A DNA stretch of 64,000 nt from a virus (IMGVR_UViG_3300033075_001751:69959-133958); one strand, 5' to 3'. Shown: positions 18,665-60,609, numbered from the stretch's first letter. Made by a program: numbers and translations. Notes: generated by a model from the sequence alone, not told the origin.

Positions 18665-19072
18665 ATGAAAAAAGAACAGTTTGAAAAAGTATTGGATTTG
18701 ATCAATGGAGACCCTGCCGAGAGAGCTCTTGCTTTTGAAATGATGTCAAATTTTACATTGGGTGACATTTTTGATTTGCTCAAACGGGTTTTTATCAAAG
18801 GATTCAACTTTACATGGAAGCACTTGGGTATAGAATTAGATGCCCGGAATTGGTTTATCTTCCGTTTTTTCAATCTTCCAGAAGGTTACCATCAAAGTAC
18901 TTTCCGATGGGCTTACTGGGACATCTCGACAATAAGGTGGATCAATCAAAATCGAGATCGGAAGCCTGACAGGACTGTTCCCTTTGTCATCGGTCATGAA
19001 GGATATTGGGTGAGTCAAAATGAATTTGACGTATTTATCAAAAACAGCAATGAAAAAGGAATACCCCGTTGA
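18665..19072 (+). CDS. N-module family protein 1
   Basis: EKVLDLINGDPAERALAFEMM. Confidence 0.75.
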   Translation: MKKEQFEKVLDLINGDPAERALAFEMMSNFTLGDIFDLLKRVFIKGFNFTWKHLGIELDARNWFIFRFFNLPEGYHQSTFRWAYWDISTIRWINQNRDRKPDRTVPFVIGHEGYWVSQNEFDVFIKNSNEKGIPR

Positions 19073-19460
19073 TAAAATCAAAGAGATGCTGCTCAGTGAA
19101 AGTGAAGCAGAACATACCCTGGCTGTTTGCATGATCAAGCAGTACATGAAGTTGGGAGAAGCTGTAGAGGTGCTGAATGTTACCAGACCTTCCTACTCCG
19201 ACAGTGATCTTTCAAGGATCTGTGTAATTCTTTCAATCTATCCGTTGCCTTACCGAATGGTAAAATGTGTTCCTTTTTGGAACGAACTTGTAATGTGGGC
19301 GGCAAAGTCTCCTAATAAAAGAGCATCCAAAAGCGATGCCAGTAAACGGTTATGTGAAAGAGCTGTTCGCCGGTTTATCAGATTACAGATCCACACTCGT
19401 GAAACAAAAGAAAGACTTCTTCGGATTGTATCACTTCCTTTAGAACCGACACATGGCTGA
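19050..19460 (+). CDS. N-module family protein 2
   Basis: DKIKEMLLSESEAEHTLAVCMI. Confidence 0.8.
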   Translation: MKKEYPVDKIKEMLLSESEAEHTLAVCMIKQYMKLGEAVEVLNVTRPSYSDSDLSRICVILSIYPLPYRMVKCVPFWNELVMWAAKSPNKRASKSDASKRLCERAVRRFIRLQIHTRETKERLLRIVSLPLEPTHG

Positions 19461-19788
19461 TCCACAAAAAATAATTGAACTATTGGAATCTTCCGATCCT
19501 GACGAATGTAGGCTTGGGTTGAAACTTCATGCGCAACTTGAATGTAAGGGAGGATTGTTGATGACAATGGCTGAGAATAGAGCTAACGCTACAATAGAGT
19601 TTGCGGAAATGTCTCTTGCTGACAGAATGAAACCGTTGCAACACTTCCTCAATAAGACCATGTATGGTATTGAAGACAAATTTCATACGATCATTACAGG
19701 GAAGAAAGGTCTTCAAAACATACGCGATTTACTGAAAAAGGAGATTGACAATGAAACAAGAAATACAGAAGATAATCGAGCTGATTGA
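19453..19788 (+). CDS. N-module family protein 3
   Basis: QKIIELLESSDPDECRLGLKL. Confidence 0.8.
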   Translation: MADPQKIIELLESSDPDECRLGLKLHAQLECKGGLLMTMAENRANATIEFAEMSLADRMKPLQHFLNKTMYGIEDKFHTIITGKKGLQNIRDLLKKEIDNETRNTEDNRAD

Positions 19789-20245
19789 TGCTCGTAATCC
19801 TACTGACAATGCGCTTGGTAAGCTTTTGATGCAACAGCTTACCCTTTCCGAAGCTTGGATAGTGTGCAACAACACGATCAAAGCCCGCAAGATCAATACG
19901 GTTAGGTTTCTTTTTGACATGTTCGATCCCCGGACTTATCCGTTTAACCGGAGCAAACATATCTTGCAGTGGTCCAAAATCGGTGAATGGGTTCAGGAGA
20001 ATCCCGACCAGAAAGCATGTCTACGTCAAGACCGGAAATGGGATTTGTCAACCGAAGTGAAGTATAAGGTTTGCAAAATGGTAACCAATACCCGCGAACC
20101 TCATCTTGGAGAACAGATGATTTTGGCTCAGTACGGCAAGTTTGTAAAAGAGACCCGGGATTTTTACGTGTTCGATGCAGGGAAAGATGGAGTGTTTAAA
20201 GTAGGAAGGGTTACATTGATATCTATTGATCCGGTAAAACCATGA
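19751..20245 (+). CDS. N-module family protein 4
   Basis: QKIIELIDARNPTDNALGKLLM. Confidence 0.8.
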   Translation: MKQEIQKIIELIDARNPTDNALGKLLMQQLTLSEAWIVCNNTIKARKINTVRFLFDMFDPRTYPFNRSKHILQWSKIGEWVQENPDQKACLRQDRKWDLSTEVKYKVCKMVTNTREPHLGEQMILAQYGKFVKETRDFYVFDAGKDGVFKVGRVTLISIDPVKP

Positions 20246-20625
20246 CAGAGCAAGAAAGAAAAATACTTGATCTGGTGTTTTCAGACGACTTGGATGAAAT
20301 GGTACTCGGCGTGCAGATGCTCAAACCTTTGACCTGCAAGGAATGTTGGTTGTTTTTGAATCACCTGTGGTTGGAGTATCCCTGGTGTTCCAAATCGGAA
20401 CGAGCCAAACGAATCATCTGGTCGCTGTATCCCAACGATTTTTCAGGTGACAGCAAACTTTTACTTGATGCAATGGGATGGGATGACCAGGTAAAAACGT
20501 GGGCTTTCAAAAATCCAGATCTGAAACATGATCCTGTTTGGAAATTTTGTGTACCCGCTTGGTTGAGTCCAGATGATACTGCGGAATATAGACGATTGAG
20601 AGTCAATGTCGATATAAAAATATGA
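20242..20625 (+). CDS. N-module family protein 5
   Basis: RKILDLVFSDDLDEMVLGVQML. Confidence 0.8.
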   Translation: MTEQERKILDLVFSDDLDEMVLGVQMLKPLTCKECWLFLNHLWLEYPWCSKSERAKRIIWSLYPNDFSGDSKLLLDAMGWDDQVKTWAFKNPDLKHDPVWKFCVPAWLSPDDTAEYRRLRVNVDIKI

Positions 20626-21146
20626 TTGATACACAGAAAATTCGTGAGTTGCTGATAAGCGATTCCGAAAGCGACGTAAAACTTGGTTTGCAGATCATGG
20701 CGAATCGCGATCACACATCTGCTTTTCGAGACCACAAGCCGGAGCTGTGGTTAGCGGGTAAAAAAGATGTACTGTGCGACCGAATATTGTACGGTAAAAA
20801 CGGAGTCTTTATCAATTCCTGTTTTGTCCAGTTTCATGAACATGACGTTACTATCGGATCTGAGCCTGATTGGTGGATTGTAGAGGAACGTACCGGCAAA
20901 GTCATTGAAAAGTACGATGTTATTGATTTGCACGAAGGATATGCTCTTAGTCATGACACTGAAATTCATCTTGACTTTTGGAGTAGAATACGAGTTTTGT
21001 TTGGAGCCAGGTTTTTTATGAAACATGAATGCAGTACCGATAAGATGGTCTGTGTGAGTAAAGGCAAGGCAACAATTACAATCGGTAAACCTAAACGAAT
21101 GATTCATCAGATGGAAAGTTTCAATCAATCAGGACCACAGTCATGA
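20622..21146 (+). CDS. N-module family protein 6
   Basis: QKIRELLISDSESDVKLGLQIM. Confidence 0.8.
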   Translation: MIDTQKIRELLISDSESDVKLGLQIMANRDHTSAFRDHKPELWLAGKKDVLCDRILYGKNGVFINSCFVQFHEHDVTIGSEPDWWIVEERTGKVIEKYDVIDLHEGYALSHDTEIHLDFWSRIRVLFGARFFMKHECSTDKMVCVSKGKATITIGKPKRMIHQMESFNQSGPQS

Positions 21147-21592
21147 AGAAAGAAGACGTTGATAAGATCATTGAAATGCTGGACTCTCGTGATACAGACC
21201 AAATCGCATTGGCAAGATTAATGCTGGAACAGGTTTTGCCGACACTTCCTAAATTCAGTCAAGAAATGATGACGGGTCATAAAGATTGGTTGGTGATTAC
21301 GGTATTTCAAGATCATAAAAAACTTTGGTGTGTTGCAAAAAATCAGATTTGGTTTGCTGATACTAAATTAAATGATCAACCTCTCTTGTACATGGAAAAA
21401 AAACCTTATACAAATCAAGGTAATGCCCTTGAAATATATCCTGCAATAGAATTTGATGCGAGTGGAATTTGGGTGAAAAATCCAACTCGCACTGGCGATA
21501 TTACAATGAAAAGTATACATCCTAAGCCTCTGCTTCAATCCCATAGATTTACAATCTTGGATTTTTCCGAGGATAATATTACCAAGATATGA
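21143..21592 (+). CDS. N-module family protein 7
   Basis: DKIIEMLDSRDTDQIALARLML. Confidence 0.8.
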   Translation: MKKEDVDKIIEMLDSRDTDQIALARLMLEQVLPTLPKFSQEMMTGHKDWLVITVFQDHKKLWCVAKNQIWFADTKLNDQPLLYMEKKPYTNQGNALEIYPAIEFDASGIWVKNPTRTGDITMKSIHPKPLLQSHRFTILDFSEDNITKI

Positions 21593-21900
21593 ATGATCAA
21601 TTGCAAAAGATACATGATCTTTTAGAATCAGAGAATATTGATGAAAGAAGGTTGGGAAAACAACTAATTAGAACTTATTTACAAACTGCTGATAAGCCTG
21701 ATGTGAGCATGTTGGTTGTCGGAGCAGCCTATGATGTTACAGGTGTTGTGTGGGAAAAAGGTGTAATACCTTGCATCAAAACCGCAACTAGAATATTTAA
21801 AGGATTCTCAGCAAACGGACAACTTATTACTTTCAATACTTCTGAAGGTTTTTTTGTTGATCGTATCTTATCAATTTCACCTGCATCAAGTGTTGTATGA
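21589..21900 (+). CDS. N-module family protein 8 (small beta-barrel cargo)
   Basis: QKIHDLLESENIDERRLGKQLI...LVVGAAY...FFVDRILSISP. Confidence 0.8.
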   Translation: MNDQLQKIHDLLESENIDERRLGKQLIRTYLQTADKPDVSMLVVGAAYDVTGVVWEKGVIPCIKTATRIFKGFSANGQLITFNTSEGFFVDRILSISPASSVV

Positions 21901-22244
21901 ACGAACAATTAGTCAAGATAGAAGAACTCTTGAGAGCAAATGAGTCTCGTGATTTGGGACAAAGATTGCTCAAGATGTACATGGATCAGATGACATTGTT
22001 GGATTTCAAGTCATTTGAGATTGGAAAGAAATACAATCTGCTTATTGGAATGAATCCTGATACATTAGGTTTCGATATTTATTGCCACCCTCTTATGCGG
22101 TTTGAGTATTACCGAAAATTCACGAACAGTGAACATGTCATGTTGACATTTACCTCACCAGATAGTAAAGTTCACTTTATACGACTGGATACTATTCTTG
22201 CTATCAAGGAAGTTCCGACTAACACATTTGTACCTATAGGATGA
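21897..22244 (+). CDS. N-module family protein 9 (small beta-barrel cargo)
   Basis: VKIEELLRANESRDLGQRLL...FEIGKKY...IRLDTILAI. Confidence 0.8.
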   Translation: MNEQLVKIEELLRANESRDLGQRLLKMYMDQMTLLDFKSFEIGKKYNLLIGMNPDTLGFDIYCHPLMRFEYYRKFTNSEHVMLTFTSPDSKVHFIRLDTILAIKEVPTNTFVPIG

Positions 22245-22495
22245 AAGAGCAGCTTGACAAGATTATTGAAATGCCGTATGAACAGCGTCAACTAGCTCAC
22301 GATCTGCTCAGGATTATTGTTCGTAATAATCGACCTGTTTCCATGGGAGAGTTGTCACGCGCAAGAAGATATCGGTTTTATATGATCAGTCATAATCAAG
22401 GATTATTAACTGTTAATGTAATGGATTGTAATCCTTTTGCTCTTAGTGCCCCTTTTGGTGTAGAATGGATCATTATTCACGCAGAAGAAATATGA
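22241..22495 (+). CDS. N-module family protein 10 (shortened)
   Basis: DKIIEMPYEQRQLAHDLL. Confidence 0.75.
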   Translation: MKEQLDKIIEMPYEQRQLAHDLLRIIVRNNRPVSMGELSRARRYRFYMISHNQGLLTVNVMDCNPFALSAPFGVEWIIIHAEEI

Positions 22496-22812
22496 AAGAA
22501 CAACTTGAAAAAGTAATAGAGATGCTCAATTCTTCGAATCATAATGAGAAATTACTGGGTATTCAATTTATTGAAAACTTGAGAGCTACACTGAACTCCA
22601 CTGTATTTGTACCGGTTCGATATCGTTTGTATTACATAACATCATTTACGTTTCTTAGACAGCATAGCGGTAAAGACTACGATCAAACGATATTGGCGGT
22701 GAGCTGTACAGAAGCTCAATGGTCTGGATGGAAGACAAGTTCCCTTACAGGAGATCGTGAACCTATTTTTAATACAACTGTAACCGGTGTCATAGCCGCA
22801 GAAAGAATATGA
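22492..22812 (+). CDS. N-module family protein 11
   Basis: EKVIEMLNSSNHNEKLLGIQFI. Confidence 0.8.
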   Translation: MKEQLEKVIEMLNSSNHNEKLLGIQFIENLRATLNSTVFVPVRYRLYYITSFTFLRQHSGKDYDQTILAVSCTEAQWSGWKTSSLTGDREPIFNTTVTGVIAAERI

Positions 22813-23129
22813 AAGAAGAGTTTGTCAAGATATCTGAACTACTGCGTTCTAAAAATGTTGCAGATGTAGAGTTAGCCTGGCTTTTGATCAACAATTATAC
22901 TGCTGCTCATCGTCCCTCGGCTATCTCTTTGGAAGAAGATAAATCTTATCTTATTACTCGGGCAAGCATGGAAGGAAAAATATATCGCGATGAACAGATT
23001 TACAAAAGTCGAGAAAAGCTCAATTTCGTAAATGTGCTTCATATAATAAACCCTTCTTCTAATACACACTGGTACATTAGAGAGCACTGGATACTGGAAA
23101 TCGTACCTCATGATTTGGAAACACAATGA
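22809..23129 (+). CDS. N-module family protein 12 (small beta-barrel cargo)
   Basis: VKISELLRSKNVADVELAWLLI...LEEDKSY...WILEIVP. Confidence 0.8.
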   Translation: MKEEFVKISELLRSKNVADVELAWLLINNYTAAHRPSAISLEEDKSYLITRASMEGKIYRDEQIYKSREKLNFVNVLHIINPSSNTHWYIREHWILEIVPHDLETQ

Positions 23130-23590
23130 AAGAACAATTTAAAAAAATAGAAGAGCTGCTTCGATCTGAAGATATTAACTCAAGACAACTTGGGAGACAA
23201 ATGATAAGAAATTATCGAGCCGAATATCCTCTTTTAGAACTAAAAGTAGGAAAAAGATACAACATTGTTTGGGTTAGTGGTCAATACAGACCTAATTTAC
23301 AAAGTATGGATAGGCTGACTTTCAGTTCTACGGTTTGCGATCCTTCGACACACTGGAATAAGGTTGTATGTTTTACCGACGTTCATAGAGGAGTACACAA
23401 GTTTTTATTGAGTTCACTCTTAGATATCACTCATGAAAGAAGAATTCAAAAAAAATGGATGATCTGCTTCAGTCCCGAGATCCTTCCGAAAGGGGGTTGG
23501 GATTGCAATTGGTCCGGAGCTACATCCAAGAAAACAAGCCTTGTAATGTCAATCTTGAGAAAGGCAAGAACTACAAGGTCACCTGGCTAA
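23126..23590 (+). CDS. N-module family protein 13 (would end at 23462 if the A8 tract were A7)
   Basis: KKIEELLRSEDINSRQLGRQMI...LKVGKRY. Confidence 0.75.
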   Translation: MKEQFKKIEELLRSEDINSRQLGRQMIRNYRAEYPLLELKVGKRYNIVWVSGQYRPNLQSMDRLTFSSTVCDPSTHWNKVVCFTDVHRGVHKFLLSSLLDITHERRIQKKWMICFSPEILPKGGWDCNWSGATSKKTSLVMSILRKARTTRSPG

Positions 23591-23748
23591 GAGAGATGGG
23601 CTCGTTGAAAAACATAATTCAATATACCCAAATAGACTTTGAAGGAAGATTTACCCATTATGAGCAAACTCGTAGGAAATATAGAGTCTTGCGATTCATG
23701 AATACCAGTATCCGTTCTGATGATGTACTTGAAATTGTACCGGTATGA
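23433..23748 (+). pseudogene. N-module family protein 14, +1 frameshift in an A8 tract (or expressed from ATG 23455)
   Basis: ATG AAA GAA GAA TTC AAA AAA A ATG GAT GAT CTG; removing one A gives MKEEFKKMDDLLQSRDPSERGLGLQLV. Confidence 0.7.
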
Positions 23749-24050
23749 ACCAAGAGATGATAGACAAGATCAACGAAATGCTCGGCTCAAAAAACAAATC
23801 AGAAGTGGAACTTGGTCGGCAAATGATTCGAACCTGGGTAGAAGAGAACCAACCCTGCAACGTACCGTTGGTGGAAGGTCAAAAGTATCTCGTTACCTAC
23901 TTGAGTATGGATCGATGGATAGAAAGATATGCATTTAGATTCAAAAGAAGGGTCTGGGAATGGTATCAACAACAGGAAAAAGCCATGCTCCAGTTTGAAT
24001 ACAATACTCAAATCTCGGTAAACAGGATTGTGAAAATTGTACCAGTTTAA
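23745..24050 (+). CDS. N-module family protein 15 (small beta-barrel cargo)
   Basis: DKINEMLGSKNKSEVELGRQMI...LVEGQKY...RIVKIVPV. Confidence 0.8.
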   Translation: MNQEMIDKINEMLGSKNKSEVELGRQMIRTWVEENQPCNVPLVEGQKYLVTYLSMDRWIERYAFRFKRRVWEWYQQQEKAMLQFEYNTQISVNRIVKIVPV

Positions 24051-24060
24051 ACGCAAAACA

Positions 24061-24372
24061 ATGAAAGAAGAATTCATTAAGATGAAAGAGATGTTGTTGT
24101 CCGGTGATCCCGAAACGATAAGTCTGGGCAAGCAGTTGATCGCAAATCATATCCGTAGACGCAAGCTCATGAAATTGGAGGAAGGAGTAACTTACATGTT
24201 CACCTGGTGGAATGAGTTTACCGGCATCTATTGTCGTGAAAAGCTTTATCTCGGAGAGTACGCAGGTCTCGGACCAAGACGAATAAGGTTGCAAAGCTTC
24301 ATGGCGGAAACCACATTGAAAAGAGAGTTAATTTTGGATGTCGTAACAATTGACGAGTTTAACGAAACGTAA
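24061..24372 (+). CDS. N-module family protein 16 (small beta-barrel cargo)
   Basis: IKMKEMLLSGDPETISLGKQLI...LEEGVTY...LILDV. Confidence 0.8.
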   Translation: MKEEFIKMKEMLLSGDPETISLGKQLIANHIRRRKLMKLEEGVTYMFTWWNEFTGIYCREKLYLGEYAGLGPRRIRLQSFMAETTLKRELILDVVTIDEFNET

Positions 24373-24373
24373 A

Positions 24374-24679
24374 ATGAAAACAGAGCTACTCAAAATAAAA
24401 CAGTTGTTTGAATCAGACAATCCCGATGATCAAGAATTGGCTATAGTGATATCCAAGAGATACATCCAGATAAATCAGCCGGCAGAGAAAGAGTTGGAAA
24501 TAGGTAAAAAGTACATCGTTACTTTCATGAGCCAACTTGAGAAAACAGTAAAGCAATACGAAGAGCTTTTTGAAGGTATGATAACGTCTAATGGAATGGA
24601 ACTCTTCAACTGGAACAACCCAGATTTTGGAAGAATACGACTTGCAAAATGGAGGATCTTGGACATTTCACCAATTTAA
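24374..24679 (+). CDS. N-module family protein 17 (small beta-barrel cargo)
   Basis: LKIKQLFESDNPDDQELAIVI...LEIGKKY...RILDISPI. Confidence 0.8.
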   Translation: MKTELLKIKQLFESDNPDDQELAIVISKRYIQINQPAEKELEIGKKYIVTFMSQLEKTVKQYEELFEGMITSNGMELFNWNNPDFGRIRLAKWRILDISPI

Positions 24680-24864: not shown

Positions 24865-25000
24865 AAAATTTTGGGGATGAAATTTTAGAGTGTGTTTCTG
24901 TCTCTGTGGAGTCTTCCATTGCACCTCCCCCGCCTCTCCGAAAATCCGAACCACCCCCGGTCAAGTTATGAACCCCTTTACGAATTGAAAAGCATGTCTT

Positions 25001-25192
25001 ATGGATAATTTCTTTGTATCATTCATGATGTTCATTACAGCGTTCTTCTTGGTATGTGCGATCATCTTCGTTCATATCATCCAGACTCATGATCTTATCT
25101 CTCACATTTTGTTGGGAGTGTTTGGTCTCATGATGTCTATTGCATTAATGGGCATTAGCACCTTTGCAATCGAGGAGGAAATGGGGCATTAG
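25001..25192 (+). CDS. small two-TM membrane protein
   Basis: Hydrophobic ORF between the motif and a hairpin. Confidence 0.6.
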   Translation: MDNFFVSFMMFITAFFLVCAIIFVHIIQTHDLISHILLGVFGLMMSIALMGISTFAIEEEMGH

Positions 25193-25236
25193 CCCCTATT
25201 CCTTTGAATCGCATGAGAGAACCCCTTTCAAAGCGC

Positions 25237-25425
25237 ATGGAAACAACTACGTGTGTGAATCCACGCTACAAGGTAGTGATGGAGATTGTCAAACCTGAAG
25301 GTTTGAAGGATATGCAAGCCAAGATCAACCAATGGATCACAACCAAGCAGTTGGTCAAGGTTGAGACTCAGCCCATGTTCGATGGTTCGATCTTCTTTAA
25401 GATCATCCAACTGAAGCAGGAGTGA
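25237..25425 (+). CDS. small early protein
   Basis: ATG 8 nt after the motif. Confidence 0.6.
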   Translation: METTTCVNPRYKVVMEIVKPEGLKDMQAKINQWITTKQLVKVETQPMFDGSIFFKIIQLKQE

Positions 25426-25488
25426 TCCTACTTCTTTGTATCGAACAAAACCCCTTTGTGAGGTTGCGCAAAATAACGCGCTAGAAAT

Positions 25489-25674
25489 ATGGAATACGCT
25501 GTATGGTACACATGTGTGACAATGATGCATCCAAGAGGACGCACCAATAGGACTTATTTTCGTTGGTCTGAGGCATTCGGAAGACCTGTTGCGGTCACCA
25601 GAATGACTGAAAAGGAATACAACAAGGTTCCTTATGAGTCAGGTATGCTCAAGAAAACACTGTATGTGAATTAA
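25489..25674 (+). CDS. small early protein
   Basis: Motif upstream, hairpin downstream. Confidence 0.6.
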   Translation: MEYAVWYTCVTMMHPRGRTNRTYFRWSEAFGRPVAVTRMTEKEYNKVPYESGMLKKTLYVN

Positions 25675-25729
25675 GATAAGGGCGTTTGCCCCTATTCTTT
25701 ACCATCGTAAAAAACCCCTTTCAAAGACC

Positions 25730-25929
25730 ATGAAAAAGATCATTCTGATTGTCATTGCCCTGGTGGGTAGTGCAGTCCTTGCTCAATACTTGTCGTCGAC
25801 CATCGTCCGACATGATCTCACCATCTATCACAACATGAAATGAAGTTCGATCCATGGGGTACCACCGGAGCTCTGATTACGATCGGAGCTGTGCTGGTCG
25901 CAGTCATTCTGGCTGTCTTGCAGAGTTGA
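25730..25929 (+). CDS. two tiny membrane peptides (25730-25843, 37 aa; 25840-25929, 29 aa)
   Basis: MKKIILIVIALVGSAVLAQY... and MKFDPWGTTGALITIGAVLVAVILAVLQS, ATGA overlap, flanked by motif and hairpin. Confidence 0.5.
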
Positions 25930-26013
25930 GTACCTTCGGGTATTCCTCTTTGTATCGTAACAATTCCTAGGTAAGTTCGATACGGAGATATGTCCGTCGA
26001 GACAACCCCTTTT

Positions 26014-26122
26014 CAATCTTGTAAGTTTTCCGAAAGGGACACACCAATCCAGTATCCTGAATCGGGTGCGGTGTGAAGGAGAAGAATTCAGGCATTACCT
26101 GCTCGGTGTCTGAGCAGGATTG
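26014..26122 (+). ncRNA. putative structured ncRNA A
   Basis: Closing stem CAATCTTG/CAGGATTG enclosing three hairpins; motif upstream, U-tailed terminator 26122-26168 downstream; no ORF. Confidence 0.5.
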
Positions 26123-26250
26123 AAACCAGTGACCCAATTCAAACGGGGAAACTGGTTTCTTTTTCTTTGAGTCGGTGTAAAAATATAAGCGTCCGGACGT
26201 AAGAACCCCTTTTTAAGAGTGCGCTTCAAATAACACTGCGCGTCAATATC

Positions 26251-26550
26251 ATGAAAGCTTTTGCATTTGGTTTCAACATTTTCACCATCGCTGGTATTTC
26301 CTATTCTGTATCCAAGTACACCAAGACCCGTGCGGTTGCCAGTGCTATCTACCGCGAGCTGGTTGCCGCGAAGTTGGAGCAGTTTGTCGAAATCCAGAAA
26401 GACAACCGTACACAAGATGCCTACATTGTCTGCATGGTCACACCGTTTACTGAAGGACAGGTTCACCCTGCGTTGGAGATTCTGCGCAAGCACAGCAAGG
26501 ATAATGCTGTTGCGAACAAGGAAAAATTGCTGGCAGAACTTGCTGGCTGA
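26251..26550 (+). CDS. early protein with highly-expressed codon bias
   Basis: Own motif and terminator (GAAGGC-ATCTGC-GCCTTC plus T tract). Confidence 0.75.
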   Translation: MKAFAFGFNIFTIAGISYSVSKYTKTRAVASAIYRELVAAKLEQFVEIQKDNRTQDAYIVCMVTPFTEGQVHPALEILRKHSKDNAVANKEKLLAELAG

Positions 26551-26604
26551 TACGGAATGAAGGCATCTGCGCCTTCTTCTTTGTTTTGTTGCAACAACCC
26601 CTTT

Positions 26605-26745
26605 TCTTGATAGTGTATGCAGCACATTCCGCCAGGTCTAATCCTCTGCGGCTAAACATGTAAGTCCCTAACGGGCAACTCCGGGAGGCATACCCGGTTC
26701 ATCCTCAATTCGTGCTCGGGGATTTGGATGAAGCAAAACAAGGGC
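26605..26745 (+). ncRNA. putative structured ncRNA B
   Basis: Four hairpins (CCGC/GCGG, CCC/GGG, CCGGG/CCCGG, TTCATCC/GGATGAA) between the motif and terminator 26748-26780; no ORF. Confidence 0.45.
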
Positions 26746-26853
26746 GGGGAGAGGGCTGACGAGCTCTCTCCTATCTTTTTTGTTCTGTAGCTCATCCCAA
26801 TCCCTTTCTTACCAAGTATTTAATCACATTTGTTTCACCTAAATCCTACGAAA

Positions 26854-27234
26854 ATGCACTCGAATACAGAAGTACTTTCTACACTCGAACTTGAAACAGG
26901 TTCACGTTTCTCCAAGATTGATATGATCCTCGAATCAGTCTTGGATCCCAATGCCGATACAGGTGATGCTACCGTACTCACCATCAAAATCGAGGATAAG
27001 TCCGAAAAAGTCTATGCGACATTCAGACTCTCCAAAGATGAGCTCTTCAAGCTGCGCAATTGGTTGAACGGTTATGTCTGTGACGCGGAACCTGCAGCCA
27101 ACCCTGATCCTCACGGTGACGACCTGCGTGCACAGATCCAGGCTCTTGTCGAGCAGGGTGTGAGCGAGCGTGATGTCCGTCTCAAGAATCTGCGCGCTGA
27201 CCTTTACGAACATGTAGAGGACGAACGTAAATAA
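26854..27234 (+). CDS. hypothetical early protein
   Basis: ATG after the CACCTAAA leader; hairpin downstream. Confidence 0.7.
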   Translation: MHSNTEVLSTLELETGSRFSKIDMILESVLDPNADTGDATVLTIKIEDKSEKVYATFRLSKDELFKLRNWLNGYVCDAEPAANPDPHGDDLRAQIQALVEQGVSERDVRLKNLRADLYEHVEDERK

Positions 27235-27286
27235 TATCAAGGGAGCATCTGCGCTCCCATCCTATTCACCTCAAATCGCATGTAAT

Positions 27287-27514
27287 ATGATTAAGAATAT
27301 GACTTTCGCCGAAGAAATGGCAGCATTGAAGAGCTTGCCGCAATCTAAAAAACGCCAAGCATCCAACAAGTTATTGGGTAGATTTGACAGGATGTCCAAT
27401 GCCGAAAAAGATCTTGAGAAAGATGCGGTGAGGGAATTCTGTCTATACCGCATAGATGAAAATGAAAAGATTATCGATGCTAACAATAGAGCCATCAATA
27501 GTCTCCGATCATGA
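27287..27514 (+). CDS. hypothetical protein
   Basis: ORF with leader motif. Confidence 0.55.
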   Translation: MIKNMTFAEEMAALKSLPQSKKRQASNKLLGRFDRMSNAEKDLEKDAVREFCLYRIDENEKIIDANNRAINSLRS

Positions 27515-27600
27515 ATATCAGGTTCAAGAAATGGAACTGCGTCCTACGCTTCGCCAAGTACGAAAACGGCAGGATTGCGATTCCCTCATGGTCAGGATGA
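27511..27600 (+). pseudogene. truncated paralog of the DUF4313-like gene at 29647
   Basis: MNIRFKKWNCVLRFAKYENGRIAI versus MIIKFKKWSCSLKWGKYSNGRPAL, then similarity stops abruptly. Confidence 0.7.
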
Positions 27601-27662
27601 GGAGGCAATGGTACCATTGAGGGAAAAGGAAAAGGAGCCCGTAAGCTCCTTGTTCCCTATCC

Positions 27663-27935
27663 TCACTTTGCTTCCAACTTTGCCTTTCGCAGCTTCGCCT
27701 TCGTGAGCTTGAAGAACTTGTAGCATTCACCCACTTGCTTTTCGGTCATGACGAGGGATGAGCCCATGCAGGGCATCCCGATCGAGACCTCGACTTCCAA
27801 CCTGTGCTCCATGAAGTTGACATGGAACTCCATTCCATCGGGATCATCCGCTGGGGTTATGGAGCATGTCGTAATTTCCTTCTTGAAGGCTTCGAAACGC
27901 TCCTCAAGTTCTTGTGCTTTTGTCTTTCTAGCCAT
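27663..27935 (-). CDS. hypothetical protein
   Basis: Lies 3 nt downstream of the RepL-like gene. Confidence 0.65.
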   Translation of the reverse strand: MARKTKAQELEERFEAFKKEITTCSITPADDPDGMEFHVNFMEHRLEVEVSIGMPCMGSSLVMTEKQVGECYKFFKLTKAKLRKAKLEAK

Positions 27936-27938
27936 GGT

Positions 27939-28400
27939 TCAGCAATCTGGACATTCAACTTCAAGAATAGCCTTGAGATTGCCGTTTCTAACCTTGTCGC
28001 CGCCCCGAAAGATGTGCCGGGGGTTGATCTTGTAGAGAGACCCGTTCAACCTCACGATCATCTTGCGCTCGACCAGGAAGGTGACTGCATTGTCGAACGA
28101 CCTCGCACTCCATCCCAGCTCCTTGGCTATGACCTGCTTGAAGGGCTTGGTCATGCTGAACTCCTGACCTTGGGAGTAGCGTTCCATCAACGAGGCGAAA
28201 AGGGAGACACGCACGTCGTCGCTCTGCTTGAGGAACATGACCATCGAAGAGTACATCAACCAGAAGCCCTCCTTGTCCGGTACGAGGTATTTGATCTTGT
28301 TGATCCTGGTGTCAACGACCTCTCCTGTCTCCATATCGACTACATCCGTTACACGAGTGGCTCCAACCCGTAGGTGAGCCTCCGTTCCTTTTGTATTCAT
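27939..28400 (-). CDS. RepL-like winged-HTH protein
   Basis: VDMETGEV N-terminus, IAKELGWSARSFDNAV HTH, YKINP.HIFRG; likely start MNTKG at 28400. Confidence 0.7.
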   Translation of the reverse strand: MNTKGTEAHLRVGATRVTDVVDMETGEVVDTRINKIKYLVPDKEGFWLMYSSMVMFLKQSDDVRVSLFASLMERYSQGQEFSMTKPFKQVIAKELGWSARSFDNAVTFLVERKMIVRLNGSLYKINPRHIFRGGDKVRNGNLKAILEVECPDC

Positions 28401-28460
28401 ACGTAAATATAACGTAGAATATTCATAAAATACGAGCTTTTTATACGTTATATTTACGTA
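28400..28460. promoter_or_regulatory. perfect 17-bp inverted repeat containing divergent TATATTTA elements
   Basis: TACGTAAATATAACGTA (28400-28416) and TACGTTATATTTACGTA (28444-28460). Confidence 0.75.
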
Positions 28461-28620
28461 GTACGCCAGTGGCGACACTCTCATACGCTCACAAGCGTAC
28501 GCCAATGTTGTTTGCAGCGTATGAAATTCGAGTCAATTCATTGGAAGCCAGCAGGTTGTGCTTGGATTTCCCTCTATCTATCATACAACTACTTTTATAC
28601 ACCATTTAACCCAGTTCACC

Positions 28621-29217: not shown

Positions 29218-29278
29218 CCCAATCCCTTTCACACACCGTATTTAATCACATTCATTTCACCTAAACTTCTATACGATT

Positions 29279-48757: not shown

Positions 48758-48834
48758 GGATCTATAGCTCAGTTGGTTAGAGCATCCGACTCATAATCGG
48801 ACGGTCGCAGGTTCAAGTCCTGCTGGATCCACCA
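48758..48834 (+). tRNA. tRNA-CAT (elongator Met or lysidine Ile2)
   Basis: Canonical cloverleaf, loop CTCATAA, encoded CCA; G1:C72 pair so not an initiator. Confidence 0.93.
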
Positions 48835-51618: not shown

Positions 51619-54451
51619 GCAAGAAAAAAAAAGTAGTTTCTGCTGAAGAATTAACATTTCTTCGTAGTCTGGAAGCAAAAGATGAAAACGGAAAGGTTGT
51701 GATCACATTAACCGCTCAACCTTACTGTATTGGAATGTATCTTGTTCAAAATCATCAACAAGGAGCTATTACTCACGAAGCTTATTGGAAATATTCGCAA
51801 AAGCTTCTCAAAGAACTGAAAAAAGACAATATCTCTTTTACGTCTTCTGACTCAAAGTACGCAGATTTCATGTCTGTAGAGGACATTGAAAATTACATCC
51901 TAAGATCATGACTGAAATTGAAAGAAACGACAAAATCGTAAACAAGATTGATAAACCTATGAGACGGCTGAAAGTAGCCAACTTCTTGGTGACTTTATCT
52001 CTTGCTTTATCGGTTATAGGGATGTTGGGATGTTGGACATATCTCATTTTCGACATACCTTCTTTGTATGCAGTAATGATTTTGATCGGAACAATTGTTT
52101 CGCTTACCGGCTACAAGTATGCAGTAGACTGGCAAGCAAAAGTCTTTGATGCTTTTCTCAAAGCTACCCGGACAATGATAAATGAGCTGAACGATCTCTT
52201 TCACGACGAAGACGACGAAGATGGATGATGAGAAAGTAATGATCTGGTACTACAAATACAATCCTTGGGTTATGGGAGGTCGTGTACATCAGCCGGTACA
52301 GGAGTTTGTAGACATCATTGAAGAGCGCGACATGGGAAAAGGTATCATTTGCTTCTCTTTTATCCTCAGCAACGGTGAAATGGGAATTGCAGATCAAGCA
52401 ACCCGAGGACTTGTAGGAAATACCTTTGAACAGGTCCAAAAAGATGTGGACGAGGGAGATCCTGAAGTTATGCGCAAACAACAAGAACGTTTTTTGAAAG
52501 TATTGGAAGATGAAGGTTGGGTAATTACAAAATGAAAAAGATCAAACATTGGATTTGGAAATGGCGGCTTGCCCGAGTGTCAAACAAAGAAGTGGAAACC
52601 GAATTTGAGGCTCTTGAACTCATGGAGAAGTTCGAGCCCGGGTTCACGGTTCGCTATTTGGAGCATTCGCCAATATCGCACTGGGAATTTGGAAAAGACT
52701 TGCGAAACGTTGTGCATGCTAATTTCGGATATGAGAACACAGTGCAAGCCTGGTTGGATACAAGAACCACTCTAAACGCTATTCGAAACATGATGCTTTC
52801 TTGTACTTACAATACGTTCGATATCTGCAAGTTGTATCCTTATTCCAAATGGTTGAAACAAGACGACTTCTTTGCGGAGGTCAAACGTCAGCTCGCGGAA
52901 CAACAACAGAAAGAAAATGAGCACTAAAATCTATAATGCATACCGGGTTTCTAAAAAAACTGACCTGAAAGAGTTGTTGAAACAGATGCGGGAGATTGCA
53001 TGTGATGAAGCTTCTAAAGACGCTAGGTTTTTGAAAGCTGTGTGGCGAAGATGTATGCAAATTGTTAACGCCAATCCAAAATCTGTCGATTGGAAAGATG
53101 ATTTCAAACAGGAGTTTGGAATTTATCAATTTGAAAAAGTATTTTTTGAAAGCAGGCGTGACAACGATGAAAGAATTGCAGATGGATCCATTGAACCGGT
53201 AATATGGTTTGATTCAAAGTGGTGGTACTTGAAGTTCCATTCCAATAGTCTTTTTGCAAGAAATGTTGAGAAAAGAATCTCTCAAATACCTGGTATCGAA
53301 GACTATCATTTTCAAGATCAAACAGATGCCCCAGAAAATATTTCCTCTGCTGAATTCAAAAGGCGCGGTAAAAAATGGGACACTTTGCTTGACGAAGATG
53401 ATTCGTTTTCATCATTCATGACTCTACCGGTGTTTACTGCTCACCAGTTTACAAAACTGGTTCAGAGACAATGGTACACCGGAACAAAAGACCTGTACTC
53501 GCATCTCGCTTATCAATTTGACGATTATGAAAGTCACACTGGATCTTAAAACCAACGATAACAAAAACCTTTTGCGTTCAATCCGGAGGTGTTTGTCGAT
53601 CTCCGAATGGGATGATTCGAAAAAGACAACTGAGATCAAGCGTCTCATTGCCGAGCGCGAAGACATTGTTGACTCAGCCATCGAAAGAGTCAAAACACAA
53701 CCCGGTACAAAACCGATTACCAAGGAACGTGCATTTGAGCTAACGTATGCTCGACCTGTTGAAAAACAAGAACAATACCCGACCATGGTGAGTTGGGAAC
53801 GGTTCATGAAAGCCTTGGACATCTACGCTGACGCAAAGGTTGAACAATACAAAAAGTCAAAACGATGAAAGTAGTCCTTCATTTTTGCATTGCTATTTTT
53901 CTTGTCGCAGCTGTTTCTGTACTCATGGTTGTGTATGAGGTGCAAACGGAACTTGCTCTCATTGCAATTACTTCAGTTGTCCCCACATACTTCTTCGGGT
54001 TTCTTTTGATCCAAGGATCGTTGACAAAAGAGGTCAAAATCGAACGGTGGGGAGGAATTGTTCAGACTAAACGAATTTGGAGATGGGAAAAACACAAATG
54101 ACCATGAAAAACAGCATTTATCAGATCAACTTCAAAGATGAGCAACAGGATTTGCTGTTTGTCAAAGTTGAACTTTACACAGATGAACCTCACCAGGAAG
54201 GTGAAATCATTGACGTGTCGACGGGATGTTCTCCGGTGGTTGCAAAAATGTACATCGGCAACGTTGTCAATCTAAAAGACAATACGGTTGGATCAAATTT
54301 CAACTATGCGAAGCCGGCTGAAGGATTTCAAGTCGTAACGACTAAATGGATTGTAGAATCAATTGTGAAAGAAGATGATGGCAACAACAATGAAGAAGGA
54401 GAGGTTCCGCTATCCGCAGGACTTCAACGAGAAGATCAAGGAACTGCTTGA
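51615..54451 (+). CDS. run of coupled hypothetical proteins (51615, 51908, 52221, 52532, 52917, 53527, 53865, 54098)
   Basis: Overlapping start/stop ORFs; no recognised family. Confidence 0.55.
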
Positions 54452-55034
54452 GTCTGATTCCAAATCAGATGTCAAGTTGGGGATCATGCTGCTATTGCGT
54501 GAAAACGGGTTTCGAGCCGGTATGACACTATGGATTGAAGATGACGAAACACTTCATCCTACACCGCTGCTGTTCCTGCACGCTAAAATAGACATGTCAA
54601 GAAATGGATCCAGCGATCGTCCCGTTATAGACCTCATGTGTCTCGATGTAATGGAGACTTGGACCGATGGAAGTGAGCCCCAGGACATAGGGGGAGTTAC
54701 CATTCAAAATTTGATCTATAAGGAAGCAATGTTCACATTTTCCTATGGTTATGTACTTACCAGAGGTATTGAGCGCATGGAGAATCGTCTTGCTGACTAT
54801 GAACGTACTGCAGATAGTTTTGCTAAGACGGTAGTAGAATTGGAAGCAAAATTTGCAAAAGCTCGTTACCAGCGCAAAGTACAAAAGCAAAACGTCAAAG
54901 ACTGTCGTGAACGTCTGGAGAGATTGAAAAACGATCCTTCTGGAAAAGAGTCGTTGGAATATCTTGCTTCTATTCAACGAAAATTGTTGTCTCAAATCAT
55001 GGTAATCGATGAAGAAGAAACCGAACAAGCTTGA
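54390..55034 (+). CDS. N-module family protein 29 (coiled-coil cargo)
   Basis: EKIKELLESDSKSDVKLGIMLL. Confidence 0.78.
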   Translation: MKKERFRYPQDFNEKIKELLESDSKSDVKLGIMLLLRENGFRAGMTLWIEDDETLHPTPLLFLHAKIDMSRNGSSDRPVIDLMCLDVMETWTDGSEPQDIGGVTIQNLIYKEAMFTFSYGYVLTRGIERMENRLADYERTADSFAKTVVELEAKFAKARYQRKVQKQNVKDCRERLERLKNDPSGKESLEYLASIQRKLLSQIMVIDEEETEQA

Positions 55035-55740
55035 CGATCAACAACTGGGGAAGATCCTTGATCTGCTTTGCAGTCCTTACACTTCGGATGATTTTTGGTT
55101 GGGTGTTCAGATGATTTTGAGTACCAATGTGTCGCAGGAACGATTCTGTTTCTTTGCTGCTCGAAACGGTAAATCTGGTGGAGATCTGATTCACATGGTA
55201 AAAGTAGTATACCGAGGAAAATCAGCTGATCCTAGTAATAATTTCGGTACTCTTGAAGGAGGTCTTCGTGATGATTTTTTAAAACATCCTTGGAAAAGAC
55301 GTGCTACACCTAGACTTCCATGGGGTTGTGTTGAAAATTATTCTTACAAAGGGGAGCGTAATCAAGAAGACTGGCAAATCGAATGGGAAAAGCGCAGACC
55401 TTCTTTATTTTTCGTTCTGAGTCAGCGATTCGATGAAACATTGAGCGAGTGGATTGAAGAAGGTGACGCAAAACACAAAGTCCGTATTTTCTTTATCCTC
55501 CTTTCGATTCTCTTGAAACTCAAAAGAGCTGCGGTTGCGTCAAAAGACTGGACCAATATGGCTAAACTTGCGGAAAAAGAATCGAGCCTGCAACACATTC
55601 GGATGTTGACTCGAATTGCTGCCGGCTACAACAGGAATGAAGGAAGCCCTGGTTTTTTAGCTTTGAGTCAGTATTCTAATGGCAACATTGCCAGACTAAA
55701 GTTTTTCAAATGGGAGCTTGAACAAGAAAGGAAAAAATGA
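55009..55740 (+). CDS. N-module family protein 30
   Basis: GKILDLLCSPYTSDDFWLGVQMI. Confidence 0.75.
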   Translation: MKKKPNKLDDQQLGKILDLLCSPYTSDDFWLGVQMILSTNVSQERFCFFAARNGKSGGDLIHMVKVVYRGKSADPSNNFGTLEGGLRDDFLKHPWKRRATPRLPWGCVENYSYKGERNQEDWQIEWEKRRPSLFFVLSQRFDETLSEWIEEGDAKHKVRIFFILLSILLKLKRAAVASKDWTNMAKLAEKESSLQHIRMLTRIAAGYNRNEGSPGFLALSQYSNGNIARLKFFKWELEQERKK

Positions 55741-57880: not shown

Positions 57881-58662
57881 ATTCTACGCTACGCGACGAG
57901 ATGCAGGGAGCACTCAACGGAGTGATTGTAGTAGCCGGCGGATTTGTCCGATCGGTTATTGCTCATGAGACAATCAACGATATTGATGTATTCATCTCAA
58001 ACGATGTTTCTTTGAACGTGTTGAATCAACGATTGACAAAAGCGGGTTTTGCTGCTCAGTCAAGCCCCAACGCAACTACTTTTGTGAACAATGACAGGAC
58101 TCCGGTCCAAGTCATCACTCGATGGATGTTCGGAAACACTGACAAGTTTACCGATTTGCGACTTGGTACTGAAGCTGAGAAGAAACTTGCTGCATCCATG
58201 ATGTTGCAGGATGTTATTGCGAGTTTCGATTTCACTGTTTGTCAAGCCGGGATCATCTGCATGCCCGGAGGCAAATGGATGGGAATGTGCTCTGATAACT
58301 TTTATGAGGATCTTGCAGCAAAACGGTTGGTTTACACAAGACCAGATCGTAAAGAAGATGCTGGCGGATCCATGCTTCGTTTGTTGAAGTACACCGCAAG
58401 AGGATATCGTGCAACACTAGGTTCGGTTTCTGCAGTTGCCGCAAGATGGTTGATGGGTCAATCTACCGGAGGATGTGAGCTTCGCATTCGTAAAGACGGT
58501 GTTGTTGATGCCGTGACAGTCGGACCAGATCCCGGCGATTGGATGACTCCAATTCAAAACTTTACCACTCTTGATGAAGAGCAGGTTGCAGCAGTTTTGG
58601 AGGACAGGTTGGTTGAAATTGATCCTCCTATTGATGTATCGGTATTACCTTACACGTCATGA
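57832..58662 (+). CDS. nucleotidyltransferase (CCA-adding/poly(A) polymerase head-like)
   Basis: AGGFVR...NDIDVF...VQVI...FDFTVCQ...R..KY..RGY. Confidence 0.8.
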   Translation: MAQLNERDVAVCVSRLNSTLRDEMQGALNGVIVVAGGFVRSVIAHETINDIDVFISNDVSLNVLNQRLTKAGFAAQSSPNATTFVNNDRTPVQVITRWMFGNTDKFTDLRLGTEAEKKLAASMMLQDVIASFDFTVCQAGIICMPGGKWMGMCSDNFYEDLAAKRLVYTRPDRKEDAGGSMLRLLKYTARGYRATLGSVSAVAARWLMGQSTGGCELRIRKDGVVDAVTVGPDPGDWMTPIQNFTTLDEEQVAAVLEDRLVEIDPPIDVSVLPYTS

Positions 58663-60034
58663 CAGACATAGTACTTCGAAAAATGCTCGTAGATGCTCTT
58701 AAAAGTCATCCTCACGCAGCTTTGATAACAGATGTCATCATAGACGGAATGAAAATCGACGATTACAGTAAATTAAGTACACTTGCTGAATCATCAAAAG
58801 GGAGGTTGTTGATTGACGCATTTGCTGGAATCGATCACAGATTGTTGATTCCGGAAGGATCACCTGTTATTGTCAAGCTCAGTTCATACTATAGCGGACA
58901 ATGGGATATTTCAGCAATGCAAGAACAAGGGTTGTGTGTAGATAAGGATTGGTACGTGGGTATTGTTATAGAGCTAAGATCTTACATTACAACCTATCCT
59001 TACAAAGTCAGTATTTCATTCATTGACAAAGAAGGTAACAGGAAAGAAGAAGTTCAGACAGTTGGCTTGAAAGACATAAAACGATGGGTAAAGTGACAGT
59101 AAAAGAGGGGAAGAACGGTGCAGTAGTAACTGTTTCTCAAAACCCCGATACCGGTTATATTTTTTTGGAGCAAATGGTGTCTTACCAGAATCCCAAGACA
59201 GGATTCCTCGGTGAGAAAAAGCGCACAGCTTTTCTTTTCGGAACCGTGTCAATGCTCTTGAATCTCAAGTGGAAGATCGGACAAGAGGTGGACGGAAAAA
59301 TCGTTCTTACCGAGTCATTCGAGCAGACAAAAGGAATGTCCCCAAAAATGGCAGGTGACACCGGCGTATGCTGCAAGCAAAATGGTCGGATGATTTACCA
59401 CAAGACCTGGTATTCATTTGATCCTACTGAACCGGATGTAACAATCCGGCACGACAATAACGCTGAAATTGCGCATGCTGCAAAAGCTCCGCGAGATTTT
59501 GACGTTTCACAAATTTGACGTATATTACTTGGTAATCAATCATTTATGGATATCTTCGTAAAAGAAGGTGACGGTGCTGTGAGCATCTCCCTCAAACGGA
59601 AAAGAGTGTCAAAAGTCTTGGTCGGCAGCTTCAAACCAGACTCTTGTGAGACTTGCGATTGTAAATACCGCAAGTTTACAGCTGTTCAGACTGCTTTTTA
59701 TGAAGGTGTGACCAAAGGTATCGGAGCCATTCCCAAGAACATCAAACTTGAGGAAGAAGCAAAAAACGAAATCCGCAACTTGCATTTTCGAGCAAAACCA
59801 TTGTTGGATGAACTCAAAGCTCAGAAGATTGATCAGTGGACTTTAGATTGCTGTGATCTCATTGAAGACATCTATGGTGTAATGGCACCGATGGAATTGG
59901 AGTTTTCTCAGAAAAAGGGAGTTCCCAATCTCGATCTTGTTGAACACTTGGGGATGTCCCAAGTTGAATTGATCAATGTTTTGATCGAAAACAGTTTACT
60001 ACCAGACTGGTTTTGGGATGAGACGGAGAACTAA
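58659..60034 (+). CDS. three hypothetical proteins (58659-59096, 59084-59518, 59546-60034)
   Basis: ORFs with normal coding character. Confidence 0.6.
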
Positions 60035-60311
60035 GAAACGGGAAAAAGAGGAGAGAGAGTATTCCAAACAAAGAAAAACTTTTCTCTCCTCTCATCCTTA
60101 TTGCCAAGCTGGATTGTCCGGATGTATGGGTTCCTCGGATTGTATCCATCACAAAAAAGGACGCATTGGAGATCTTTTACTAGATCAGCGTTACTGGCTT
60201 GCTTCATGTAATAGCTGTCATGATTGGATCGAGAATCACCCAACTCAAGCCAAAGAACAAGGTCTGAGTGAATCACGTTTAAGTATTGACAATGGGGACA
60301 CAAGCATCTAA
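60018..60311 (+). CDS. small HNH endonuclease
   Basis: CQ...C...IHHKKGR...SCNSCHDWI. Confidence 0.8.
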   Translation: MRRRTKKREKEEREYSKQRKTFLSSHPYCQAGLSGCMGSSDCIHHKKGRIGDLLLDQRYWLASCNSCHDWIENHPTQAKEQGLSESRLSIDNGDTSI

Positions 60312-60609
60312 CTTCGAAAAGCTCAAGGAGCTTATTGAATCTCCTAATTTTGAAGACAGAGAGTTAGGGTTTTTATTGTTCAGTCAGATTCAAGAAGCTA
60401 CTATTTTTCCACCTTTGGAAGTAGGTCGTTCTTACTTTGTTCAAGGTCGAGCGGGATCACCAGACAGACCTCTTTTATGCAAAATGTGGAAACGTATTTT
60501 GGAATACTCTTATTCTTCTTACGCTTTTGGACCTCTTTACTTTTCTGATCAACAAGGAAATAACTATTTTATCTTTCCTGTAGAGATTCTTTCTATCAAC
60601 ACATTATGA
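60292..60609 (+). CDS. N-module family protein 31 (small beta-barrel cargo)
   Basis: EKLKELIESPNFEDRELGFLLF...LEVGRSY...EILSI. Confidence 0.78.
   Translation: MGTQASNFEKLKELIESPNFEDRELGFLLFSQIQEATIFPPLEVGRSYFVQGRAGSPDRPLLCKMWKRILEYSYSSYAFGPLYFSDQQGNNYFIFPVEILSINTL

Follow-up and report, generated by a model that had tools for sequence, protein, structure and literature searches.

Thirty-one genes in a 64,000-nucleotide (nt) stretch of an uncultured viral genome (IMGVR_UViG_3300033075_001751; the whole stretch is hereafter called the window) encode small proteins that open with the same helical hairpin, a module of about 28 residues joined to C-terminal regions of at least two different predicted folds. 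The window comprises bases 69,959-133,958 of one 133,958-bp virus contig that is rated complete. The source is an uncultured crAss-like phage of 134 kb, and its host is probably a member of the Bacteroidota. The hairpin family is real and previously undescribed, and it is partly modular and partly the product of ordinary paralogy; no description of such a phage family was found in the literature. The family is read here, with a probability of about 0.42, as a lineage-specific, tandemly expanding set of small non-structural phage proteins in which the hairpin would serve as a shared docking element. With one constant element on several folds and with relatives that differ in copy number, the family is a clean case, and it offers a tractable system for studying how sets of host-interaction proteins arise and turn over in phages. 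Positions are those of the window unless genome positions are stated.

The hairpin module

The module was located with a strict regular expression and then with a hidden Markov model (HMM) that was built from its matches and iterated on six-frame open reading frames (ORFs). The regular expression gives 15 motif matches in the window, all on the plus strand. The iterated HMM gives 31 plus-strand genes with 32 module copies (gene 40954-41529 has two), which recovers both the number and the starts of the genes in the preliminary description of this DNA. Seventeen of the genes lie at 18665-24679, five at 40954-42999, and three at 49376-50645, and single genes start at 37076, 39228, 43784, 54390, 55009, and 60292. 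Together they span 12,229 nt, or 19.1% of the window, in agreement with an earlier estimate of roughly a fifth, and about a tenth of the genome. Window ORFs scoring at E<1e-3 number 27, compared with none in each of 10 residue-shuffled ORF sets, and no ORF on the minus strand of the window falls below E 1 with the module HMM. A chance motif is ruled out by the shuffles and by this strand asymmetry. Four copies are weak (21897, at E 0.09; 55009; 49849; and 22241). The first three were counted as members by eye or through cargo paralogy; 22241 goes without a module match in the genome scan, is scored at only E 0.14 by the seed HMM, and is matched by the barrel-class profile described below.

The core motif of the module is K-I-x-E-L-L-x-S-x-D-x5-L-G-x-x-M-[IL], and the consensus of the module alignment (A2) is x-x-[FL]-x-K-I-x-E-L-L-x-S-x-[DN]-x-x-x-x-x-L-G-x-x-M-[IL]. 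The layout is that of a first helix (x-x-[FL]-x-K-I-x-E-L-L), an S-x-D cap, and a second helix (L-G-x-x-M-[IL]). All 35 aligned copies have lysine at position 5 (Lys5), and one leucine is near-invariant. The hairpin is conserved at the level of protein, not of DNA: third codon positions are 0.32 identical among hairpins, only 37% of identical residues are encoded by the same codon, and mixed codons are used for the conserved lysine and leucine. Selection on the hairpin at the protein level follows from the 32% identity of third positions and from the mixed codons. A DNA- or RNA-level repeat, or recent gene conversion, was considered as the cause of the shared 5' ends and rejected, as identity at third positions is at the background level and the choice of synonymous codons differs.

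Cargo classes and predicted folds

The regions that follow the hairpin, here called cargo, had been described as mostly unalignable. This holds for BLAST, which joins only two small groups, but not for profile comparisons, which place 21 of the 31 genes in two classes that align over their full length. The tally in the window is 11 barrel-class genes, 10 helical-class genes (one of them probably composite), and 10 unclassified genes. The cargo profiles of the barrel (B) and helical (H) classes are unrelated (hhalign probability 0.13%), and 10 window members fit neither class. The members thus do not all align at full length, although those within each class do. The earlier view that the cargo domains are unrelated is sustained for at least two different predicted folds; about two-thirds of the members are ordinary paralogs within two classes.

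The barrel class includes ten genes from 21589 through 24374, together with 60292, and is alignable over its full length, with the motifs L-E-x-G-x-x-Y-x-V after the hairpin and I-L-x-I-x-P at the end. An AlphaFold2 (AF2) model of 23745-24050, made on the barrel-class alignment, has a mean predicted local distance difference test score (pLDDT) of 92.1 and a predicted template modelling score (pTM) of 0.78, and consists of two helices (residues 3-13 and 18-35) followed by five strands (47-53, 59-74, 77-84, 88-91, and 95-100). The model superposes on the WYL domains of PafBC, BrxR, CapW, and DriD with VIA-align Z scores of 5.6-6.3 (root-mean-square deviation 2.0-2.7 Å over 62-67 residues), a range that the alignment tool rates as common and that indicates type of fold rather than function. 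The next matches are designed SH3 barrels and Hfq, at Z about 5. As modelled, the barrel-class cargo is a predicted Sm/SH3/WYL-like five-stranded barrel.

The helical class comprises 18665, 19050, 19751, 20242, 39228, 42583, 43784, 49376, 49849, and 50238. After the hairpin, its members carry helices 3 and 4, the latter closing with F-x-x-P, together with a W...W..N-P-D motif. The AF2 model of 20242-20625 (pLDDT 81.5, pTM 0.77) is built of helices only, six in number, and those of the hairpin span residues 3-12 and 17-27. The only similar folds are HEAT, ARM, and TOG segments, and the similarity is weak (Z <= 4.2). Foldseek searches with both AF2 models found no match in the PDB or BFVD at E <= 1e-3.

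One gene, 19751-20245, may bridge the two classes. In this gene and its orthologue P0028, the H profile matches the front of the protein and the B profile matches residues 99-160. In 19751 the H-profile match covers the full length of the profile, and the B-profile match is a second domain with an independent E value of 4e-4. The barrel is also detected by hhalign (E 0.003, probability 10.6% vs 0.17% for the reversed control), and both barrel motifs are visible by eye. These matches are suggestive of a composite architecture that would link the helical and barrel classes.

The members of the family in the window, preceded by a candidate promoter, are as follows.

18634-18641, plus strand: candidate promoter, TAtaTTTG, a Bacteroidota-type -7 box about 20 nt upstream of the first array gene; putatively serves the 17-gene operon, a role proposed from the sequence
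18665-19072, plus strand: H class; module HMM E 2.5e-10, H profile matched over HMM positions 1-108
19050-19460, plus strand: H class, cargo paralog of 42583; module HMM and H profile
19453-19788, plus strand: cargo unclassified; module E 4.4e-9, matches neither B nor H cargo profile
19751-20245, plus strand: composite of module, H-type helices, and probable B-type barrel at residues 99-160; H and B profiles
20242-20625, plus strand: H class, folded representative (m492ef1175100); AF2 pLDDT 81.5, pTM 0.77, six helices
20622-21146, plus strand: cargo unclassified, 174 residues; module HMM and cargo profile comparison
21143-21592, plus strand: cargo unclassified, 149 residues; module HMM and cargo profile comparison
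21589-21900, plus strand: B class; B profile E 1.3e-27, barrel-class alignment (A3)
21897-22244, plus strand: B class, module turn shortened; module HMM E 0.09, B profile
22241-22495, plus strand: B class, degenerate module and short barrel; seed HMM and B profile
22492-22812, plus strand: B class; module HMM, barrel-class alignment, and B profile
22809-23129, plus strand: B class; module HMM, barrel-class alignment, and B profile
23126-23590, plus strand: B class, without a stop at the usual place and running 136 nt into the next gene; sequence and B profile
23455-23748, plus strand: B class, truncated at the N terminus by a +1 shift within an A8 run; comparison with orthologue P0001, B profile
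23745-24050, plus strand: B class, folded representative (mb0fd49953b30); AF2 pLDDT 92.1, pTM 0.78
24061-24372, plus strand: B class; module HMM, barrel-class alignment, and B profile
24374-24679, plus strand: B class; module HMM, barrel-class alignment, and B profile
37076-37471, plus strand: module and third helix, remainder unclassified; module HMM, orthologue in contig L010
39228-39707, plus strand: H class; H profile E 9e-23
40954-41529, plus strand: two tandem modules with a third helix after each; two HMM domains
41526-41915, plus strand: cargo unclassified; module HMM and cargo profile comparison
41899-42282, plus strand: cargo unclassified; module HMM and cargo profile comparison
42279-42593, plus strand: cargo unclassified; module HMM, corresponds to search match P0003
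42583-42999, plus strand: H class, cargo paralog of 19050; module HMM and H profile
43784-44203, plus strand: H class; module HMM and H profile
49376-49792, plus strand: H class, in a three-gene sub-cluster; module HMM, cargo BLAST, and H profile
49849-50241, plus strand: H class, weak module; cargo BLAST to 49376 and 50238, H profile E 2.8e-23
50238-50645, plus strand: H class; module HMM, cargo BLAST, and H profile
54390-55034, plus strand: long coiled-coil-like C terminus, 214 residues; module E 7.5e-9, weak coiled-coil-type PHROG matches only
55009-55740, plus strand: weak module, cargo unclassified, 243 residues; regular expression/HMM, ESM Atlas model of low confidence
60292-60609, plus strand: B class, directly upstream of the helicase gene; B profile E 5.8e-24

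An assignment of 21143 to the barrel class, suggested by an HMM, failed in hhalign on the cargo alone and was dropped.

Ten junctions in the 17-gene array are ATGA overlaps, and the block is a tightly coupled operon. Gene 23455 lacks the first half of helix 1 because of an extra A, relative to the orthologue P0001, in the A8 run at 23448-23455. The ATG-AAA-GAA-GAA-TTC start of this gene is out of frame with respect to P0001, and the upstream gene 23126 reaches a stop only at 23590. The A8 anomaly may reflect a homopolymer sequencing error, a true frameshift, or A-AAA-AAA slippage that would fuse two members.

Evolution of module and cargo

Across 28 orthologue pairs, identity is 0.65 in the hairpin and 0.54 in the cargo, and the hairpin is the more similar part in 22 of the 28. 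From these identities (65% vs 54%), both parts are under purifying selection, the hairpin somewhat more so. Among paralogs, hairpin identity is 0.35 and 0.32 within the two classes and 0.30 between them (permutation p ~5e-4). The near-equal values show that the hairpin has stayed nearly constant across cargo classes, with a slight within-class excess. Copies multiply by tandem duplication inside each class. Since one gene probably carries both domains, the classes are probably linked by loss or gain of a domain rather than by many independent fusions.

Distribution of the hairpin

The module profile is specific. When searched against 1.84 billion representative proteins it yields 28 matches at E <= 1e-3, of which 26 are proteins of 73-222 residues with the hairpin at residues 2-40. 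Five of these 26 come from the window itself, and the majority of the others are orthologous to genes of this genome. The remaining two matches are a repeat protein that matches in the turn region only and a low-complexity sequence. The protein P0022 (569 residues) has at least five repeats of about 45 residues with R-S-D-x-P-E-E-R-x-L-G-x-A-L and is unrelated to the family; it matches only the module turn and the start of helix 2, and it has no Pfam family match. A search for homologous proteins with the whole-family alignment returned 16 close relatives only.

Related uncultured phages carry arrays whose copy number and content differ between contigs. Contig L006 has 13 module genes, syntenic with 18.7-24.7 kb of the window; L009 (from a 136.8-kb contig) has 17-18; and L010 and L011 have about 10 module genes, syntenic with 37-50 kb. 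A second protein with two modules is encoded at L010:7373. IMG/VR searches with alignments A3 or A4, the portal, and the major head protein found no further relatives, and a search with the large terminase (TerL) found one 9-kb fragment, without module genes. There is no match among GenBank phages by blastn and tblastn. The module profile is absent from Leptolyngbya phage Lbo-JY46 and csAssE-Sib, the nearest named phages by portal, whereas the own-genome control gives 36 matches. Searches of Pfam (E <= 1) and PHROGs with all 31 members gave isolated chance-level matches only, and PDB profile searches with A2, A3, and A4 gave nothing below E 0.1.

Outside phages, a protein of a bacterial-looking contig (P0017) and a 44%-identical protein (P0042) have a very good hairpin at residues ~13-38, ahead of a DUF6272 domain. 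Clusters of DUF6272 overlap HATPase_c_2 and occur most often in Bacteroidota. No hairpin is present in a DUF6272 homologue from Cytophagales (L013:3280-3855), and the gene that follows it looks SiaC-like by eye. Over the databases searched, the hairpin is confined to a small clade of uncultured phages and a bacterial fusion. P0017 is encoded at L005:10001-10669, and its DUF6272 domain is SiaB/HATPase_c_2-like; CHAT-caspase, AAA/nSTAND3-like, LRR, and MoxR genes are also found on L005 within a few kb.

Family members beyond the window

The whole genome has 37 family genes, six of them beyond the window, and the module profile gives 36 matches in it. Four of the further members lie at genome 7.4-9.0 kb. 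An internal copy of the hairpin occupies residues ~213-240 of a 350-residue protein (P0043), the start of which overlaps (ATGA) the stop of a MoxR-like AAA gene; the AAA gene in turn follows a DUF2201 gene for a vWA-plus-metallopeptidase protein. These three tightly coupled genes (genome 8988-12578; L002:2489-6079) lie directly downstream of the four family genes and are followed by a PD-(D/E)XK nuclease gene.

The barrel-class profile identifies one member on the minus strand (genome ~28719-29040; L012:6220-6537). It begins with a TTG codon that overlaps the virion RNA polymerase gene at its stop, and a gene for a 1936-residue protein comes next. This member is the only family gene among virion or ejection genes, and a search for its orthologues found none. 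The other 36 of the 37 members are on the strand opposite the structural genes, among genes for DNA metabolism and anti-defence.

Docking element or structural relic

The hairpin behaves as a separable unit: one protein has it internally, two have it twice, and in bacteria it is fused to a DUF6272 domain. A shared docking role is favoured over a purely structural relic because the hairpin is separable in this way and carries an invariant lysine that a hairpin core does not need. A non-structural role is indicated by the position of the genes, opposite the head-gene strand and among a ligase gene, a helicase gene, and a gp5.9-like gene. In such a role, the hairpin would tie many different C-terminal binding domains to one shared partner, which could be a further hairpin or a hub common to all. 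For a hub, the 350-residue protein with the internal copy would be the best candidate, given its apparent translational coupling to the MoxR-like AAA and DUF2201 vWA-metallopeptidase genes. The variable C-terminal domains would then act on different host or phage targets in takeover or counter-defence. If so, the adaptor-plus-effector logic of bacterial conflict systems and of animal death-domain signalling would extend to phages, and the hairpin would provide a handle to pull down the targets of some thirty uncharacterised proteins at once.

Several observations weigh against docking. Most of the conserved positions (the hydrophobic strip, the S-x-D cap, and L-G) are those that folding of a hairpin alone requires, and the helical-class module simply opens a Trp-rich domain made of several hairpins. 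The pTM values of 0.77-0.78 suggest that the hairpin may pack on its own C-terminal domain, with little free surface. The slightly higher hairpin identity within classes fits duplication within classes and vertical paralogy, not free shuffling, and the link of the hairpin to the MoxR/vWA genes is one of adjacency in one genome. Of the constant dock with variable cargo that was first proposed, there remains a specific unit, conserved at the protein level, ahead of two folds; 31 unrelated cargos was too strong a claim, and in the helical class the dock is itself the first hairpin of the domain. A serious, if less favoured, possibility is that the genes are ordinary fast-evolving paralogs, and that the hairpin is a folding nucleus or cap kept from one ancestral gene while the rest diverged or was deleted, without a shared partner. 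The placement of 21 of the 31 genes in two full-length alignable classes, the probable composite gene that connects these classes, and the weak co-divergence of the hairpin with cargo class are all consistent with this account, as are conserved residues that are mainly at core or capping positions, high pTM values that fit single compact units, and expansion by tandem duplication with ATGA-coupled junctions. Simple paralogy fits less well with the presence of the same hairpin on a bacterial DUF6272 kinase-like protein that has relatives without it, with the copy inside the 350-residue protein and the tandem duplicates (signs of a transferable unit), with ~30% hairpin identity across classes that have no other detectable similarity, and with the invariance of Lys5 where the core has no need of it.

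Three further proposals concern what the hairpin might contact or where it might direct its carriers. It would be a bolder and unlikely form of docking if the hairpin were a homotypic adaptor of the kind seen in effector-associated domains (EADs) and Death domains, by which some 35 effectors plug into the MoxR-vWA-metallopeptidase system through the 350-residue protein, or if adaptor-only decoys jammed host immune complexes built on the same hairpin (e.g., hairpin-DUF6272); if true, phages would have their first described adaptor-coupled effector library. More doubtful still is stacking of the hairpins in trans, as mixed solenoids or as homo- or heterotypic oligomers that form combinatorial assemblies without a separate hub. 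A lone alpha-alpha hairpin does expose a hydrophobic strip unless it is covered, two proteins hold two modules in cis, and the H-class model stacks several hairpins in cis, but the monomer models are already compact (pTM 0.77-0.78) and no data point specifically to contacts in trans. Least probable is a virion-targeting or ejection signal, whereby the proteins would be packaged as a ready-made set of effectors and injected together with the DNA and the virion RNA polymerase. The barrel-class member that adjoins the virion RNA polymerase gene and the giant 1936-residue gene speaks for such a signal, and a constant N terminus on a variable body recalls the internal proteins of T4. The I-x-E of the module also fits the pattern of a T4 prohead-protease site, probably by coincidence in an amphipathic helix, and the position equivalent to the Glu is Asp in many copies. 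Packaging of the T4 kind is unlikely for most members because of gene position (36 of 37 opposite the structural strand, in DNA-metabolism and anti-defence operons), although the polymerase-adjacent member keeps it alive for a subset. The hairpin is, moreover, also internal in one protein and present on a bacterial one, and in the models it belongs to a compact fold, unlike a cleavable leader.

Comparison with known systems

The EADs of MoxR-vWA/STAND conflict systems are small, non-enzymatic, mostly alpha-helical terminal domains that have been proposed to couple proteins by homotypic contacts (Kaur, Burroughs, Iyer and Aravind 2020, eLife, PMC7159879), and they undergo lineage-specific paralog expansion, to up to 19 per genome (PMC7159879). 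The phage module is likewise a small, non-enzymatic helical hairpin at a protein terminus. The likeness in layout (one copy beside MoxR/vWA genes, many on diverse small proteins, and a lineage-specific expansion) is one of layout only. No EAD Pfam family matches any member at E <= 1, the carrier here is a phage rather than a multicellular bacterium, and the cargo consists of tiny binding-type folds, not of enzymes or STAND NTPases. In addition, P0043, which carries the internal copy, does not belong to the recognised core components, and the pattern is seen in a single genome.

The internal proteins of phage T4 are products of late genes and have an N-terminal capsid-targeting leader of about 10 residues that is cut by the prohead protease. 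They resemble the present family in that small phage proteins of great variability share a short, constant N-terminal element and are encoded at a plastic locus. In contrast to that leader, the element here is a folded hairpin of 28 residues integrated in a domain, and all but one of the genes are among non-structural genes.

A resemblance to a single HEAT-like repeat had been suggested for the module, and in part it stands. Like HEAT, PBS-lyase-type, and LRV repeats, the module has helix-turn-helix geometry, a turn resembling L-L-x-S-x-D, and a small residue in its second helix, and the fold matches include weak ones to alpha-solenoids. However, none of the 31 members matches a Pfam HEAT-type or LRV model (HEAT, HEAT_2, HEAT_PBS, HEAT_EZ, or LRV) at E <= 1. 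In the barrel class there is one hairpin instead of a solenoid, and the helical class has four to six helices; unlike those repeats, the phage hairpin has an invariant Lys5. The modelled barrel class resembles WYL, Sm/Hfq, and SH3-like barrels in its predicted succession of helix and five-stranded barrel. It differs from WYL and LSM proteins in that there is no profile match, the PDB profile search is empty, and the barrel class has no helix-turn-helix partner domain.

Large eukaryotic DNA viruses have multigene families that expand and contract, such as the MGFs of African swine fever virus (ASFV) and the ankyrin/PRANC proteins of poxviruses. As in those families, the phage has dozens of diverged tandem paralogs, variable copy number, and a presumed role in host interaction. 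The difference is the setting: a tailed phage with about a tenth of its genome in one family of ~100-160-residue proteins is unusual. Because space in phage genomes is short, one family at ~19% of the window probably means strong diversifying pressure from the host.

Genome setting

The structural genes lie on the minus strand in the first 1-18.5 kb of the window and include those for the major head protein (3981-5621), the portal (6881-9640), and the large terminase (9640-11826). The portal has only 24-30% identity to any named sequence. Its top match is Leptolyngbya phage Lbo-JY46, followed by csAssE-Sib and then by many crAss-like phages. From 18.6 kb on, nearly all genes are on the plus strand, and the neighbours of the family there include a ligase-like gene (44200-45282) and a helicase gene (60606-61751).

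The gp5.9-like gene (40030-40509, plus strand) sits between two family genes and encodes a protein of 159 residues, of which residues 122-157 match the T7 gp5.9 RecBCD inhibitor family (Pfam PF25708) at E 7.7e-10, above the cut-off. At the corresponding place in contig L010, also amid family genes, is a plus-strand gene (5997-6908) for an AAA ATPase of 303 residues (PF00004, E 6e-14). In contig L006, a precomputed Pfam match to Acb3 (PF25187, anti-CBASS) lies at 1-345 on the minus strand, in the structural-side block beside the family array. Two tRNA genes are found on the plus strand of the window, for tRNA-Thr (TGT) at 48049-48122 and for tRNA-Met (CAT) at 48758-48834.

The sequence AACCCCTTT has 11 plus-strand copies, where 0.68 are expected, confined to 24971-36284 (i.e., between family blocks). 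Its role is probably that of a promoter or a cassette signal specific to the phage.

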